From contig JAHZGC010000002.1 of the NCBI GenBank assembly GCA_019421015.1, positions 156,436-220,435 of the forward strand: DNA of 64,000 bases. Direction: 5' to 3'. This document shows positions 2,951 to 43,404 of this stretch, in pieces; the first letter of the stretch is position 1; the number at the start of each line of letters is the position of its first letter. A program made the position numbers and the translations under genes. This stretch comes from Coriobacteriaceae bacterium. GTDB lineage: Bacteria > Actinomycetota > Coriobacteriia > Coriobacteriales > UMGS124. The notes under the pieces are model-generated. The model was not told the DNA's origin. It ran no database searches and worked only from the letters and a program-made list of their open reading frames with translations.

Positions 2951-3021
2951 GAGAGGTGGGGGAGGCCCGGTCGCCTTCGGAGACGGGATCTAACCGTCCT
3001 CGGGGGGACAAGCCCGGCTCC

Positions 3022-3212
3022 GGACAAGATGGCGACTTTCTCGACCGATTGGGGTTCTCGAGGGCGGCCTGTGGACGAGACCGCGACTTTCTCGACCGGT
3101 TCTAGCCCTGACCGCGTTGGGGTCCTGTAGGTGCGCTCTTTCTACCTGCGGTGTTGTTGTGCGGTCTCACGACTCGCCTACGGAGTTGGTCGAGAAAGTC
3201 GTGGTTTTGTCC
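3022..3212. repeat. Three copies of a 25-nt unit GGAC(R)A(R)A-N5-GACTTTCTCGACC (two direct, one inverted)
   Basis: The copies are ggacaagatggcgactttctcgacc (3022-3046), ggacgagaccgcgactttctcgacc (3073-3097), and the reverse complement of 3188-3212, which reads ggacaaaaccacgactttctcgacc. Confidence 0.8.
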
Positions 3213-3268
3213 GCCGGGCGATTGGCCCACGGGCGATTGACCCGCCCCGCCTCGCCGGAGGCGGCCCT

Positions 3269-3523
3269 TTATACCAGCTCGCCCACCGTTACCGAGCACC
3301 CGTCCCGGATGCCCGCGGGCACGGGCTCGTCGAAGGCATGGGAGCGCGGCGCGATGTTCTCGCCATCGAACCAGTAGGCCGTGGTACGCCCCGCCATGGG
3401 GTCGACAACCCAGTACTCGCGCACGCCCGCGTTCTCGTAGCGCCCGAGCTTGCGGATGTAGCCTCGGCGGCGGGTGGAGGGGGAGACGACCTCGGCCATC
3501 AGGTCGGGAGCTCCCTCACGGCC
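3269..3523 (-). pseudogene. Uma2/DUF820-family endonuclease, C-terminal fragment only
   Basis: PDLMAEVVSPSTRRRGYIRKLGRYENAGVREYWVVDP matches the Uma2 core motif. The N-terminal half is missing and the upstream part of the ORF is not protein-like. Confidence 0.55.
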
Positions 3524-3538
3524 GAACCAAAAATGGGC

Positions 3539-3653
3539 CCCGGGCGGAGAGACCCGGGGCCCCAGGAGAGGGAGGCAAGAGAAGAGGCGGCCGTCCGTTC
3601 CCTGGGGGTTGGGGGCCGGCGGAGAAGCCGGCCCCCACAGGAGAGGGAGGCAA
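3539..3653. repeat. About 75-bp tandem duplication; each copy is a GC hairpin followed by CAGGAGAGGGAGGCAA
   Basis: The 16-mer caggagagggaggcaa occurs at 3563-3578 and 3638-3653. Each copy is preceded by a GC-rich inverted repeat, for example gggggccgg-cggagaag-ccggccccc at 3611-3636. Confidence 0.7.
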
Positions 3654-3907
3654 ACCAATGCCGCGCGGTGCTCGGAAGATGCGCTCGTGTGGTATGTCGG
3701 TGCGCTGGCTCCTTGCGACGATGAGAAGAATACCCGATGGGTCCTGTGGTGTCAACCAAGGCTAACAACCGATGAGAAACAAAGGTTAACCTTGCATAAC
3801 TTCTTCACATCCAGCTTGACGAGCGGGGAATGTATGGCGAGGCGCGGTCTCGTTGCGGAAAGCGCCGTCGCGCTTGCGGCTGCGACGGCGGTCGGCGTTG
3901 CGCGTGC

Positions 3908-4193
3908 CCGCGACGGCCCTGCCTGGCACCAAACCTTCGTTGTGTAAGGGCGACGTGCCCCAAATGGCACCAAATTCGAGTTGTGAAACTGTCGGAAGGC
4001 GCGACCGCCCGCTTTGGTCAGCAGACGATTTACACAACCCGGGTTTGGTGCCATTCTCATCCATCGACTCTTACATAACGGGAGTTTGGTGCCATTCTCT
4101 GGCCAGCTCTTTTACACAACGGGAGTTCGGTGCCAACCATGGCCGTCGGTTCTTGCGCAACTCCGATTTGGTGCCATCCGGACTCCCCATGCT
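3908..4193. repeat. 41-bp-periodic array of a 24-nt unit TTACACAAC-N5-TTTGGTGCCA; two inverted copies then four direct copies
   Basis: Reverse units lie at 3924-3947 and 3965-3988. Forward units lie at 4030-4053, 4071-4094, 4112-4135 and 4153-4176. Spacing is exactly 41 bp within each arm, with variable 17-nt spacers. Confidence 0.85.
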
Positions 4194-4251
4194 CGGCTCG
4201 CCCACGGGGCGTTTCGCCATTGGGCCCGGCCCCCGCCGCCGGTCCGGGCCT

Positions 4252-4296
4252 TCTCCAAAACGCGGGAGGGCCCGCGGTCGTCCCGAGGGCCCTCCC
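4252..4296 (-). terminator. Intrinsic terminator downstream of the ABC operon
   Basis: A 10-bp stem (GGGAGGGCCC / GGGCCCTCCC, 4264-4273 and 4287-4296) is followed on the minus strand by GCGTTTTGG. It lies 52 nt after the stop of the last ATPase gene. Confidence 0.6.
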
Positions 4297-4347
4297 ATCG
4301 CGTTCGCGTTCTGTGCGTGCCGGTGCTACCTGCTTAAGCCGCTCGCC

Positions 4348-5423
4348 CTACCCCAGCGGGTGGTGGCAGGCAACCATGTGGCCGCCGCCGAGGTCGCGCA
4401 GCTCGGGGCTCTCCTGCTTGCAGACCTCGGTGCAGTAGGGGCACCGAGGGTGGAAGCGGCAGCCGCTCGGCAGGTTGATGGGGCTCGGCAGCTCGCCCAG
4501 CACGGCGGCCTTCTTCTCGTCGGCGCGGTCGGCCTCCATGGAGGGGGCGGCGGCCAGCAGGACGTTGGTGTAGGGGTGGCGCGGGTTGTCGTAGAGGGCC
4601 TCGGTGTCGGCGGTCTCGACCATGCTGCCCAGGTACATCACGGCCACGCGGTCGCTGATGTAGCGCACCACGCGCAGGTCGTGGCTGATGAACAGGATCG
4701 AGAGGCCCAGCTTGTCCTGCAGGTCGATGAGCAGGTTGATGATCTGGGCCTGGATCGACACGTCCAGGGCCGAGACCGGCTCGTCGGCGATGATCAGTTT
4801 GGGCTGCACAGCCAGGGCACGGGCGATGCCGATGCGCTGGCGCTGGCCGCCGCTGAACGCGCTGGGCAGGCGCTCGGCGTGCTCCTCCGAGAGGCCTACG
4901 AGCTCCAACAGCTCGGAGATACGCTTGTCGACTTCGGCCTTGGGGCACATCTTGTGGTGGAGCAGCTCCTCGCGCAGCACCTGGCGCACGGTCATGCGCG
5001 GGTTCAGCGACGAGTAGGGGTCCTGGAAGATCATCTGGATGTCTTTGCAGCGGTCGCGCAGCTCCTTCTTGGTGAGCTCCGAGAAGTTGGTGCCGGCAAA
5101 GACCACGCGCCCGGCGGTCGGGCGGTACAGGTTGATGACCGTGCGGGCCAGCGTGGACTTGCCGCAGCCCGACTCGCCCACCAGGCCCAGGGTCTCGCCC
5201 TCGTTCAGGGTGAACGACACGTTGTCGACGGCGGTGAGCTTTTGCTTGGGCCTGCGCAGGATGGCGTCGAACACCGTGTGCTTGAGGGGGAAGCTCTTGC
5301 TGAGCTGGCTCACCTCGAGCAGGGTCCGGGGCTTCTCCGCCGCCTCGGGGTCGGCTTTTTTGGGGTCGACGCTCAGGTCGTCGACCTCGAGCAGCACATC
5401 GTCTTTCATGGACTGCTGGGTCA

Positions 5424-5424
<1 letters not shown>
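4348..5424 (-). CDS. ABC transporter ATP-binding protein, OppF/DppF type
   Basis: Walker A is GESGCGKST, the signature is FSGGQRQR, and Walker B is LIIADEPVSALD. The oligopeptide C-terminal Cys motif is GCRFHPRCPY. The start MTQQSM at 5424 overlaps the upstream stop (TAATG). The 1013-aa ORF in the track is a read-through artefact. Confidence 0.92.
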
Positions 5425-6497: not shown

Positions 6498-7379
6498 CTA
6501 ATCCTTGGTCCGCAGCAGGTCGTTGAGGCCGTCGCCCAGAAGCGAGAAGCCCAGGCCCACGACGGCCATGACCACGCCGGGCATCGTCGAAATCCACCAG
6601 TACCCGCCGGTGATGAACGACTTGCCGTTGCTGATGATGGCGCCCCACTCGGGGGTGTTCGGCGGCACGCCGAGGCCCAGGAAGCTCATGGAGGCCGCGG
6701 TCATGATGCACATGACGATGTCGGAGGCGGCGTAGACCACCGAGCTCGAGATGACGTTGGGCAGGATGTGGCGCATGATGATCGAGAAGTCGCTGTAGCC
6801 CAGGGTCTTGGCGGCCTGCACGTACTCGGAGTTCTTGGCGATGAGGACCTCGGAGCGCACGAGGCGCGTGTAGGGCGGCCAGCTCACGATCCACATGGCG
6901 ATGAGCAGGTTCATGACGCCGTTGCCCAGGATGGCCACGATGGCGATGGCCAGGACCATGAAGGGGAACGCCACAAAGATGTCGAGGATGCGCATGATGA
7001 TGGCGTCGAGCTTGCCGCCGTAGTAGCCGGCGATGAGGCCGAGCAGCGAGCCGAGCACAAAGGGCAGGGCCACCGAGCCCAGGCCGATGAGCAGGTCGAG
7101 GCGCGTGGCGTGGATCACCAACGTGTAGATGTCGCGGCCGTAGTTGTCGGTGCCGAACCAGTGCTCGGCGCTCGGCGGCTGGAGCATGGCCAAGAAGTCC
7201 ATGGCCGTGGGGTCGCCCGGGGCGAACACGTTCGGGAAGGCGGCCACCAGGCAGGTGAGCGCAACGAGCACGACGCCTACGAGCAGGCTGGGGCTGCGGC
7301 GCCACACCGAGATCTTCTTGGGCTTGTAGGCCGGAGCGGCCGGGGCAGGGGCCGCGGCGACGGTAGCGGTGTCGCTCAT
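6498..7379 (-). CDS. ABC transporter permease, OppC/DppC type
   Basis: This is a multi-TM protein with a BPD_transp_1-like core (SEYVQAAKTLGYSDFSIIMRHILPN). It overlaps the upstream permease gene by 4 nt. Confidence 0.9.
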   Translation of the reverse strand: MSDTATVAAAPAPAAPAYKPKKISVWRRSPSLLVGVVLVALTCLVAAFPNVFAPGDPTAMDFLAMLQPPSAEHWFGTDNYGRDIYTLVIHATRLDLLIGLGSVALPFVLGSLLGLIAGYYGGKLDAIIMRILDIFVAFPFMVLAIAIVAILGNGVMNLLIAMWIVSWPPYTRLVRSEVLIAKNSEYVQAAKTLGYSDFSIIMRHILPNVISSSVVYAASDIVMCIMTAASMSFLGLGVPPNTPEWGAIISNGKSFITGGYWWISTMPGVVMAVVGLGFSLLGDGLNDLLRTKD

Positions 7380-8329
7380 GCCTCGTCACCTCCCAGCTTG
7401 ATGCGGTGGTCGAGCACCGAGTACAGGATGTCGGTCAGAAGGTTCACCACGAGGGTGATGATCACAAAGACGAGCACGCAGGTCTGGACCACGGCGTAGT
7501 CGCGGCCGGTGACCGCCTGGACGAGCAGGGCGCCGATGCCCGGCAGGCCAAAGATGTTCTCGATGATCACCGAGCCCGAGAGCATGCCGATGATGCGCAT
7601 CGAGAGCAGCGTGGCCGTGGGGATCAGGGCGTTGCGCAGCACGTAGCCGGTGGAGATGACCCAGCCCGAGAGGCCCTTGGAGCGGCCGAAGTCCACGTAG
7701 TCGGTGTTGCGCACGTCCACCACGTTGTTGCGCACGTTACGGATGATGACCGCGATCGAGGCGAAGGCCAGCGTGATGCCCGGCAGGACCAGGGAGTAGA
7801 GGTGCTCTCCCCAGGTCTTGCCCCAGCCCGAGACCGGGAAGAGCTGCAGGTTCACGCCAAAGATGATGAGGAGCACGAGGCCCACCCAGAACGACGGCGC
7901 CGCCAGGCCGATGAGGGCGAACAGGCGGATGATGACGTCGGGCAGCTTGTCCTTCATGGCACCGGCGATGTAGCCCAGCGGCAGCGCGATGATGACGGTG
8001 AAGACCGTCGCGGTCAGGGCCAGGCAGATGGTGGTGATCATGCGGGTGCCGACCAGGGTGCTGACCGGCTCCTTGTAGATGATCGAGGTGCCCAGGTCGC
8101 CCTGGAACATGTTCCCGACCCAAATCACGAACTGGTCCCACAGCGAGGCGTTGAGCCCCATCTTCTCTTTGAGCGCTTCGTACACTTTGGGGTCGATCTT
8201 GTCCCCGAGCGTAGCCAGGGCGGCGTCACCGGGTAATAGGCGCATAAGCAGGAATATGGCCACGACCGAGATGACGAGCACTGGAATCATCTGCAGCAGG
8301 CGCCGCAGGATATAGCGCAGCGTTTCCAC
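7376..8329 (-). CDS. ABC transporter permease, OppB/DppB type
   Basis: The N-terminus (V)ETLRYILRRLLQMIPVLVISVV is typical of OppB. The GTG start at 8329 is preceded by AGGAGGAG. The core motif is DYVDFGRSKGLSGWV. Confidence 0.88.
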   Translation of the reverse strand: METLRYILRRLLQMIPVLVISVVAIFLLMRLLPGDAALATLGDKIDPKVYEALKEKMGLNASLWDQFVIWVGNMFQGDLGTSIIYKEPVSTLVGTRMITTICLALTATVFTVIIALPLGYIAGAMKDKLPDVIIRLFALIGLAAPSFWVGLVLLIIFGVNLQLFPVSGWGKTWGEHLYSLVLPGITLAFASIAVIIRNVRNNVVDVRNTDYVDFGRSKGLSGWVISTGYVLRNALIPTATLLSMRIIGMLSGSVIIENIFGLPGIGALLVQAVTGRDYAVVQTCVLVFVIITLVVNLLTDILYSVLDHRIKLGGDEA

Positions 8330-10212: not shown

Positions 10213-10496
10213 GCATGACCTCCTTGTTCGGTGCCCCGACGTCTGAGTCGGCGGGGCAGGCAAATATCCGCGCTTGAGGACGACGTGATGCGTTTGAATC
10301 CGACGGCCTATGGGAGAGCTGATGACCGAGCGTGGATAAAAAAGTATTTTGAACCTTGAATGGGCCGCATGTGAAGAAGAAGTGATGCATTTTTGCAGGT
10401 TGGAAACAAACGGCGGCTTTGGGTCGGTGGCCGGGTTTGGGATAGCTCCGAGGGGGGTAATCCGCCTGGGCCCTTGGGGGCCGGCGGATCGCGTGG

Positions 10497-10776
10497 GGAC
10501 GAGACCCTTGGGGGTCGCCGTGGGGTGGACGAGATCCTCGGGGGCGCTCCCGGGGGGACGAGATTGGGACTTTGTGACTTAGGCTGGGGTTGAGATGACA
10601 GGAACCCCCGTTTTGCGACTCACTTTTAGAGTAGCATCTAAGTAGTTTTGGTATCACCGCAGGTACAGTTTGCATCGAGCGTCGCATCGCCCTGGTATCC
10701 CGGCAAAACCGAGTCGCAAAGTCCCCATCTCTGCCGCGGCCACCCCCGGATGAGTCGCAAAGTTACGATTTCGTCC
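10497..10776. repeat. Cluster of GGACGAGAT...GACTTTGCGAC units in direct and inverted orientation
   Basis: ggacgaga starts at 10497, 10527 and 10556, a period of about 30. The unit ggacgagattgggactttgtgac is at 10556. Inverted copies gagtcgcaaagtccccatctc (10711) and gagtcgcaaagttacgatttcgtcc (10752) follow. gaacccccgttttgcgactc lies at 10602. Confidence 0.8.
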
Positions 10777-10918
10777 AGACCCGGGCTGCGGTTGCCGTCG
10801 GGGCGTTTGGTTGCGGGGGTGTTTCGGAGGCGGTATTAACCTATTCAACAGGTAGGTAATTGCGCTAAGCTACGGCCGACGATCTACGGCTGGCCCCGAC
10901 GAAAGGCAGGCATACACC

Positions 10919-41808: not shown

Positions 41809-43314
41809 GGGGGTGCGGACGCTTTCTTGGACGGCCTAGACGACCAGCCAGAGCCGCTTCCTGCGGCCCCCTATCGTGTCGCACGCGGTCCCGCCGCCCT
41901 CGCGGAAGGCCTTGAGGCGCCCCTCCCGGTACCAGGCTATGTACGAGGCGAGCTCGGCGGCGAAGCGCTCGGCGGTCCAGCCCGACCAGTCGCGCCCCCG
42001 GAAGAACTCGACCTTGAGCCTGCCGAAGAACCCCTCGCAGGCGGCGTTGTCGGGGGAGTGCCCCTTGCGCGACATCGACCTCACGAGCCCCAGGGCGGCG
42101 CAGGCCCCGACCCAGTCGGGCGTGCGGCAGCGCCGCCCCCTGTCGGAGTGGAGCACGCAGCCGCGCCGCGCGGCCGCCGCGACGCCCCCGAGCATCTCGG
42201 CGACGAGGGCCTTGGAGGGGCTCAGCCCCACGGAGAAGGCGGCCACGTCCCCGCCGAAGGGGTCGACCGCCGCCGACAGGTAGACCTTCCTCGGGTCGTC
42301 GGGGGAGGCGGAACTCCGTGGCGTCGGTGGCGATCACCTCGCCGGGCCGGGGCGCCGAGAAGTCGTGCAGGTCGCGCCCCTCGTCGACGAGCAGGAGGTT
42401 CGGGGCGCAGCGCAGGCCCTCCTCGCCGGCGTAGGAGCTGTAGGGCCGGGCCGCCGAGGCCGAGGAGCGGGCGGCCCGGCCCCTCCTCGCGCACGACGCG
42501 CCTCACCACCTTCTCCGAGACGACGACCGGCCGCGACGGGTCGAGCGAGGCCGCCCCGCGGGCGCGCCGGGGCTCCCCGGGGCCCGAGCGCAGGTCGGAC
42601 CACACGCGCCTGGGGCCGCAGGCCCCTCCCGAGGCCCCGAAGGAGGCGCGGACGAGCGGCCGGGGCGCCGCGTAGGGGTCGGGGGCCGAGGAGGCCGCCG
42701 CGCCGTAGTAGAAGGTGCTCCTCGGCAGGGAGAGCGCCCCGAGCACCCTAGCCAGCCCGAACCTGCCCCCCAGGGACGCCGCCAGCGCCGCCCTCTCCGC
42801 CGCCGTCAGGGCGGAAGGGTCGGCGCCGGGGTCTTTTTTTAGTATCTCGACCGTCCCGGCCAGGATCGCGTTCTCCAGCTCCAGCTCCTCGCAGCGCCGC
42901 CTGAGCGCCTCCAGCTCCGCGGGCGGCCCGGCGGGCTCGGGCGAGCGGACCCTCGCGTCCTCGTCGCTCATCAGCGCCAGCTCCCCCTCCTCGGCCAGCC
43001 GGCGCGCCCAGCCCCTGACGGCCGCGGCGCTCACGCCGCCCTCGGACGCCAGGTCCTCCGCGCGCTCGCCGGCCGGGAGGCGGGCGGCCAGGCCCCTCTT
43101 CCCGTCGTAGGGCAAGTATGCTGGCTCCTTGCGGGAGGCGTGGCCGGCGGCCCAGTGGCCCACCGTCGTCCGGGCGCACCCGACCAGCCCGGCGGCCTCG
43201 GCCTGCGTCCACCCCTCGGAGAGCGCCATCAGGGCGAGCTCCCTGTCTTCCTTAGAGTACATGCGGACTCCCAACCGGACACCTGCCAGTGTCCAACTTT
43301 TTGTCCGCACCCCC
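41809..43314 (-). mobile_element. IS3-family insertion sequence (about 1.5 kb)
   Basis: The imperfect terminal inverted repeats are GGGGGTGCGGAC-N6-TTGGAC (41809-41832) and its complement at 43291-43314. The interior encodes an HTH/leucine-zipper OrfA part and a DDE integrase part. No clear target-site duplication is visible. Confidence 0.8.
41836..43262 (-). pseudogene. IS3-family transposase (OrfAB) with two frame disruptions in the integrase part
   Basis: The first segment is MYSKEDRELALMALSEGW...ENAILAGTVEILKKDPG...VSEKVVRRVVREEG. It shifts near 42473-42484 to ...RPYSSYAGEEGLRCAPNLLLVDEG..VIATDATEFRLP. It shifts again at the G5 run 42301-42305 to ...KVYLSAAVDPFGGDVAAFSVG..HSDRG..SMSRKGHSPDNAACEGFF. 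Confidence 0.75.
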
Positions 43315-43404
43315 GATTGCTGTCAAAAAGGTGCTCGCGTGTACGCTATTTTGACCCCCGCACCGTACACAACGGGGTGGTTTTGGTATGCACGCGCACA
43401 CGCG
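43315..43404. repeat. Family A composite element, right part (after IS3)
   Basis: gtcaaaaaggtgctcgcgtgtacgc (43322-43346) is followed by the inverted unit cgtacacaacggggtggttttgg (43364-43386). The tail tatgcacgcgcacacgcg resembles the tail of the 38150 copy. Confidence 0.75.

Follow-up and report, generated by a model that had tools for sequence, protein, structure and literature searches.

The stretch of DNA analysed here (the window, 64 kb, G+C content about 65%) is placed on a 3.83-Mb contig and carries, near its left end, an array of repeated sites beside a transporter operon. This operon lies to the right of the array on the minus strand, and its five genes encode a SBP_bac_5 protein, two permeases (BPD_transp_1) and two ATPases (ABC_tran). 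The array is found 172 bp downstream of the stop codon of the last gene, which encodes an OppF-like ABC ATPase (4348–5424, minus strand). The nearest named relatives of this OppF are MAG proteins that carry the label Coriobacteriales or Coriobacteriaceae. The host appears to be one of the Coriobacteriales and, judging by the abundance of flavoprotein-reductase and membrane LuxR-type regulator genes in the window, probably one of the Eggerthellaceae. Upstream of the SBP_bac_5 start there is also a tandem repeat with a 30-bp unit in 2.4 copies (10495–10564).

The array belongs to a lineage-specific segment of 648 bp (3698–4345, boundaries accurate to a few nucleotides), which a sister lineage with a 94% identical OppF, L018, lacks; about 5 bp are found at this place in L018. 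L018 is otherwise colinear with the window, including the end of oppF, the native 3′ leader, a terminator module and the Uma2 remnant. Two further relatives, L019 and L023, have no array either, and their terminator directly follows oppF. Judged from these comparisons, gain of the array segment in the lineage of the window appears to be the most parsimonious reading. A resemblance between the centre of the array and the native leader of L018 was attributed to chance after a better alignment. The insert exceeds the conserved array, and its remaining parts have no relatives. Just after oppF it contains a terminator-like hairpin with GCGTTTTGG on the minus strand (4255–4296), an inverted repeat read by eye with arms at 4264–4277 and 4283–4296, which is missing from the terminator-scan list. 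At the far end of the insert, about 170 bp past the outermost inverted site of the array, a sigma-70-like promoter, TTGACA-17-TATTCT (3727–3755, minus strand; a consensus match only), is directed away from the array, and a palindrome, AAGGTTAACCTT, is found upstream of it at 3782–3793.

Leftward of this promoter-like site follow two CT-rich-plus-hairpin terminator modules, a Uma2 fragment and a frameshifted LuxR-type regulator. The terminator module combines TTGCCTCCCTCTCCTG with a GC-rich hairpin when read on the minus strand, and occurs as a tandem duplication at 3535–3578 and 3611–3653, with a T-run only at the 3535–3562 copy; L018 has one copy, and strain L014 shows an additional 18-bp duplication at about 3595. 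The Uma2 (PF05685) endonuclease remnant (3269–3499, minus strand) comprises the C-terminal 76 codons and is still shorter in L018. The membrane LuxR-type regulator gene (GerE HTH, 1815–2950) is split by a 1-bp frameshift near 2838–2850, where ‘gcaagg’ is present and ‘gcaaagg’ expected, indicating either a pseudogene or a homopolymer assembly error. The neighbouring FMN_bind and AAA-ATPase_like genes are also fragmented in several strains, and a 97-nt tRNA-Ser(cga) called by ARAGORN at 1030–1126, inside the AAA-ATPase_like frame, is probably a false positive. A second repeat family, with the core GCGACTTTCTCGACCG in units of about 30 nt, occupies the region 3020–3215 of the window, where two direct copies 51 bp apart (3032–3047 and 3083–3098, plus strand) are accompanied by an inverted third (3187–3202, minus strand). 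About four copies of the same core occur in L018 at ~7375–7620, upstream of a flavoprotein reductase gene, and these repeats could serve as a set of operators for one of the numerous LuxR-type membrane regulators.

In the array itself, the repeat finder and a pattern search recovered six matches to TTACACAACNNNNNTTTGGTGCCA with at most 2 mismatches at 3924–4176, where 100 dinucleotide-preserving shuffles gave an expectation of 0.00. The 24-bp unit has the consensus TTACACAAC-N5-TTTGGTGCCA, from which the copies depart by 0–2 mismatches, and is asymmetric, with a 9-bp block, a free 5-bp gap and a 10-bp block; its internal dyad (CACAA...TGGTG) is weak and imperfect. On the minus strand are the outer inverted unit (3924–3947, TTACACAAC-GAAGG-TTTGGTGCCA), which scores 36.9 with the position weight matrix (PWM), and the inner inverted unit (3965–3988, TTTCACAAC-TCGAA-TTTGGTGCCA). 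Four direct units follow on the plus strand: unit 1 at 4030–4053 (TTACACAAC-CCGGG-TTTGGTGCCA), unit 2 at 4071–4094 (TTACATAAC-GGGAG-TTTGGTGCCA), unit 3 at 4112–4135 (TTACACAAC-GGGAG-TTCGGTGCCA) and unit 4 at 4153–4176 (TTGCGCAAC-TCCGA-TTTGGTGCCA). The inner inverted unit and the four direct units were each found by repeat finder, pattern search and PWM. A preceding sequence-only reading of this DNA had described six units at exact 41-bp spacing, two inverted and four direct, and these were recovered as it had placed them: the start-to-start distance within each arm is exactly 41 bp, and Tandem Repeats Finder independently called a period of 41. The centre between the two inner units (3989–4029), which that reading had put at about 40 bp, does exist, and its exact length is 41 nt. 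The orientation of the units is conserved, the TTACA ends of both arms face the centre, and the outermost bases of the array are 5′-TGGCAC...GTGCCA-3′. No seventh unit occurs in the 64-kb window, even at 4 mismatches or with the PWM, and degenerate units suspected by eye beyond the six did not score above background.

The array region is non-coding, as coding-type GC3 is absent from 3700–4300 in every reading frame. Identity between the units of the window is 0.92 in the cores, 0.36 in the N5 gap and 0.33 in the 17-nt spacers, the latter two being close to the random level; thus the earlier description of conserved cores and unconserved spacers was borne out. All six units are also present in ten further contigs that encode an identical OppF, and another contig, L025, agrees by spacing. 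Within the species, 4 of 114 core positions and 13 of 139 positions in the rest of the array are variable, a core deficit that is not significant (Fisher P = 0.08). Indels were not found within the array, while several occur in its flanks.

The stop-free frame across the array was translated and compared by phmmer with 1.84 billion proteins. Beyond the locus itself, the matches were two spurious ORFs that proved to be translated homologous arrays, on the contigs L026 (2,995 bp) and L027 (683 bp). L026 has inverted units at 514 and 555 and direct units at 620, 661, 702, 743 and 784; L027 has inverted units at 250 and 291 and direct units at 356 and 397. The window and these two contigs therefore have a common layout, in which two inverted units are followed by a 41-nt centre and then by between two and five direct units. 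A scan of metagenome contigs with a two-unit pattern gave one match, L017, with two units 41 bp apart. Over the four arrays, all 12 unit intervals equal 41 bp, as do all three centres in nucleotides, and the information-rich motif of the 19 units is limited to the two blocks (identity 0.89–0.92 in the cores, 0.32–0.36 in N5 and spacers). Similarity from array to array does not extend beyond the array edges, and the flanks show no relation to one another. The centre is semi-conserved among family members: that of the window is identical to that of L026 at 26 of 41 positions (P ~6e-5 against the spacer background), which exceeds the conservation of the spacers. A notable stretch of it, CTTTGGTCAGCAGACGAT (4012–4029), and its best-conserved word, CTTTGGYCAGCAGAYGA, both adjoin the first direct unit. 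The arrays form a small undescribed family, carried by GC-rich, Coriobacteriia-like contigs of metagenomes and sequencing runs. A further, weak match to the array ORF, the 813-aa protein P0364, is a translated tandem repeat of about 2.4 kb with a period of ~62 nt (back-calculated) that contains CTACACAAAC, and it was judged unrelated.

The L017 units abut a truncated VWA gene at most 1 nt from the TTACA tip of the unit, with 1 nt of microhomology, and the VWA gene is intact in L022 and L024. L017 is a mosaic contig, however, in which a conserved stretch marks the change from one VWA allele to another and the array takes up just the final 90 nt. The junction may thus be a chimeric read, and little weight is given to L017 as the end of a gene-disrupting insertion. 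L020 shares the VWA break point and has no array. L017 and L020 are unrelated contigs, yet in both (at 10870 and ~2020, respectively) this clostridial NorD-like VWA gene is interrupted at almost the same point, within 3 nt of one codon (K|GFADK) and beside a small palindrome, GGCTTTGCGGACAAAAGCC; it is joined to the array in the former and to a response-regulator fragment in the latter. The shared break could reflect either a hot spot of recombination or an artefact of assembly.

The cores and the 41-bp register are invariant despite randomised spacers, which shows that both core sequence and spacing are under selection and excludes the neutral decay of a tandem duplication. Selection on the two together points to proteins that bind cooperatively, approximately along one DNA face. 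The sequence-only reading had proposed cooperative binding at sites four helical turns apart, all on one face. The phased-site behaviour it implied holds, since the register is kept without indel in four arrays, and four turns are right approximately; strictly, 41 bp correspond to 3.9 turns at 10.5 bp/turn, so that a single face is not kept exactly. Its more specific label of an iteron or partition site was not upheld.

A different use of the inverted arms, a hairpin formed as RNA or single-stranded DNA, had also been suggested by that reading and seems barely credible now. The single-stranded DNA fold does reach −65.4 kcal/mol (z = −3.9 against shuffles). Yet pairing occurs only via the conserved cores and leaves the spacers as large internal loops, and the N5 gaps agree from arm to arm at 15 of 30 positions, near the 36% between any two units. 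The arms are unequal in unit number, the sequence of the blocks is itself conserved beyond mere complementarity, and Rfam gave no match above noise.

Several catalogued classes of repeat were compared with the array. REP/BIME elements and MITEs occur in many dispersed copies per genome that are similar over their whole length. Here the contigs share only the cores, and neither the 64-kb window nor some 250 kb of related loci contained a further unit; a common genome-wide REP, which might have accounted for the array, thus does not fit. When 185,579 species genomes were scanned strictly for a single unit, the six matches were scattered over unrelated phyla and stood alone, without further units beside them; they are regarded as chance. 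CRISPR arrays have direct repeats of 23–47 nt in one orientation, separated by unique spacers of similar or greater length, and usually cas genes. The present unit is 24 nt long, but its spacers measure 17 nt, two units are inverted, and Pfam scans gave no cas-like gene. Type III antitoxin repeats are near-identical tandem repeats of 34–45 nt directly upstream of the toxin gene, and this class was rejected too, the spacers being unconserved and no ORF following in either direction. As for a sigma-54 promoter, the consensus TGGCAC-N5-TTGCW was not matched in the array at ≤1 mismatch; TGGCAC is present on the reverse strand of each unit, with no TTGC at the −12 position.

The iteron and partition labels were examined against the surroundings of the array. 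Pfam scans of the roughly 10 kb to each side of it gave no rep, par, integrase, relaxase or transposase gene. The nearest transposase is of the IS3 family (41.8–43.3 kb); its gene, at 41836–43322 on the minus strand, encodes HTH_23 plus rve in two overlapping frames within a 77% G+C stretch. Phased repeats are present, as in an iteron-type origin, but there is no rep gene within about 10 kb, no DnaA-box cluster at or near the array and no AT-rich unwinding element; the 40-mer with the highest AT content (65%) is located in the promoter-like region, about 110 bp away from the array. Partition centromeres are repeat arrays of plasmids or chromids and lie next to a parA/parB or parM/parR operon. 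The array has no ParA/ParB-like gene nearby and no parS consensus at or near it, the contig measures 3.83 Mb, and PLSDB gave no match. More broadly, Rfam yielded no match at the gathering score in the window, only noise at E up to 10 in 3000–5000, and none in L026 or L027; two patterns had no match among viral contigs (IMG/VR); and BLAST of the window and L026 arrays against PLSDB plasmids and INPHARED phages gave one 21-nt chance match only. Literature searches returned only primers for the core words and only general analogues for 41-bp arrays and Tn402.

With moderate confidence, we consider the array to be a DNA-level scaffold, most likely an orphan cis-site, perhaps of iteron, centromere or att type, of a mobile or plasmid-like element, with which it was probably acquired. 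As there is no plasmid, phage or viral match, the evidence for a mobile origin consists of the patchy distribution and the insertion. We infer that the units are bound cooperatively by a protein. Each 24-bp unit would fit one protein copy reading two successive major grooves, or a pre-formed asymmetric pair. With 41 bp making about four helical turns, the bound proteins would be aligned roughly on one face, where they could contact each other, or wrap the DNA, in a cooperative manner. The asymmetric unit and its conserved orientation make the site polar, and the two arms may hold the 41-nt centre in a defined, polar nucleoprotein complex. The centre would then be the likely site of action, whether strand exchange, nicking, unwinding, fork arrest or promoter control. 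The array would have come with the 648-bp segment that is missing in the sister lineage, and no candidate partner gene lies nearby. A more far-reaching proposal, which we advance as tentative and rather doubtful, is a new class of cis-element, so far represented mainly in GC-rich, Coriobacteriia-like contigs: a polar, two-armed, strictly phased landing platform from which a protein would act on DNA at the conserved 41-nt centre. Such a platform could possibly serve a new recombination or integration system, or a new fork trap or segregation site, and it would have no sequence kinship to the Tus, RTP, ParB, Rep or integrase site families.

The promoters and operons near the arrays bring in another explanation, possible though unlikely, by which the array is a set of operator or upstream-activating sites of a chromosomal transcription factor that binds cooperatively and acts by looping at a nearby promoter. 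LuxR-, LysR- and AraC-type regulators are abundant in the genome, and ABC transporter operons adjoin two of the three arrays. The L026 array has a divergent AAA_14 ATPase gene on one side and a FecCD ABC-permease operon on the other, and an outward promoter-like site upstream of this operon is found 130 bp beyond the last direct unit, as the sigma-70-like site is found beyond the array of the window. Nevertheless, the promoters are consensus matches only, and they lie beyond the two-unit arm in the window and beyond the five-unit arm in L026. The window promoter runs only into terminators and the truncated Uma2 fragment, and so has no gene to regulate. Besides, the L027 array is located just after the 3′ end of one gene, with a second terminator-like hairpin (by eye) beyond it.

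The same architecture may also be compared with the ends of mobile elements. Improbable, in our judgement, is the explanation that the array represents joined or miniature transposon ends of the Tn7, Mu, Tn402 or IS21 kind, or the arm sites of a lambda-type attP. The units would then be bound by a transposase or an integrase, and the transposases of such elements bind at several places per end. The arms of the array are unequal and inverted, with 2 versus 2–5 sites, and known systems have 2+4 (Tn402), 3+4 (Tn7) and, around the core of lambda attP, 2+3 arm sites. The array spans about 250 bp, the same as lambda attP, its distribution among related lineages is patchy, and the L017 units adjoin the broken VWA gene as described, at a junction that may be chimeric. 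Ends of the Tn7, Mu, Tn402 and IS21 type carry 5′-TG...CA-3′, are flanked by a target-site duplication and enclose a transposase plus an AAA+ helper gene. The outermost bases in the window do read TG...CA, but both depart from this in L026 (GGGCAC...GTGCCG); none of the three complete arrays (window, L026 and L027) is bordered by target-site duplications, only 41 nt separate the arms, and neither a transposase nor an integrase gene is nearby. Moreover, the k141 short-read assemblies L011 and L014 traverse the array, which suggests, short of proof, that these genomes have no near-identical long copy elsewhere. To our knowledge, known transposon ends have neither a strict 41-bp period nor a conserved 41-nt centre. 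As to a lambda-type attP, such sites have arm-type sites around a core with inverted core-type sites, an overlap region and an adjacent integrase gene; an arm-like layout is present here, but inverted core-type repeats were not seen by eye in the three centres (window, L026 and L027). The sequence-only reading had named a known mobile-element end as a possible identity of the region, and the region is not recognisable as one.

Lastly, a chromosomal replication or segregation site read by a lineage-specific host protein, either a Ter-like polar fork trap or a centromere-like site, appears very improbable. Opposed groups of asymmetric sites around a short centre resemble the layout of compact fork traps, of which the inverted Ter pair upstream of rtp in Bacillus subtilis and the ter pair of R6K are examples, and known fork-trap systems are lineage-restricted. 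Cumulative GC skew (1–64000) climbs to about 57 kb and then drops, and this peak may reflect a nearby replication terminus, roughly 50 kb from the array. The signal is weak, however, and confounded by lower-GC islands at 44–56 kb; the skew does not change sign at the array, a search of the window for a dif site gave nothing, and there is no known candidate terminator protein. The array also sits within the recent 648-bp insertion and is missing at this locus in the sister lineage.

For these gut bacteria, genetic tools are few and little is known of their mobile DNA. Identification of the protein that recognises the array could bring to light a new system of recombination, maintenance or regulation, and could give a defined DNA handle for genetics in these organisms. 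Even if the array is a relic, it would still be a record of horizontal DNA movement into the chromosome.

Phased arrays of asymmetric sites are a hallmark of the machines for DNA replication, segregation, recombination and mobility. For the scaffold reading that we prefer, the 43-bp repeat of the sopC centromere is the nearest precedent for a 41-bp period. In plasmid F, sopC consists of 12 direct 43-bp repeats, each with a 16-bp SopB site (PMC3177203). The two arrangements share a period of about four helical turns, a site of ~16–24 bp per unit and, presumably, a cis-acting cooperative nucleoprotein assembly. However, the sopC sites are palindromic and all direct, the repeats are near-identical over the whole unit, and they lie next to sopAB on a plasmid, whereas the array is asymmetric and two-armed, with a conserved centre and randomised spacers, and is chromosomal with no par genes nearby.

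Iterons are known from the theta-replicating plasmids F, pSC101, R6K, pPS10 and P1. Like the array, they have asymmetric two-block sites of about 20 bp in strict helical phase, unconserved spacers and inverted extra copies beside a direct set. Unlike the array, they have a period of about 22 bp, inverted copies that are half-site palindromes at the rep promoter, and an adjacent rep gene with an AT-rich unwinding region. Lambda attP resembles the array in its length of ~250 bp and in unequal, opposed sets of sites around a centre of 30–40 bp, but its arm sites are not strictly periodic, and the array has neither the integrase gene nor visible core-type inverted repeats. An intact attP is also not expected inside a chromosome. 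The ends of Tn7, Mu and Tn402 likewise contain several two-block sites of about 20 bp, in unequal numbers and inverted; the array differs in having no transposase gene, target duplication, element body or sign of multiple copies. Taken together, the array matches no catalogued family and is best described as a variant of the phased protein-binding arrays.
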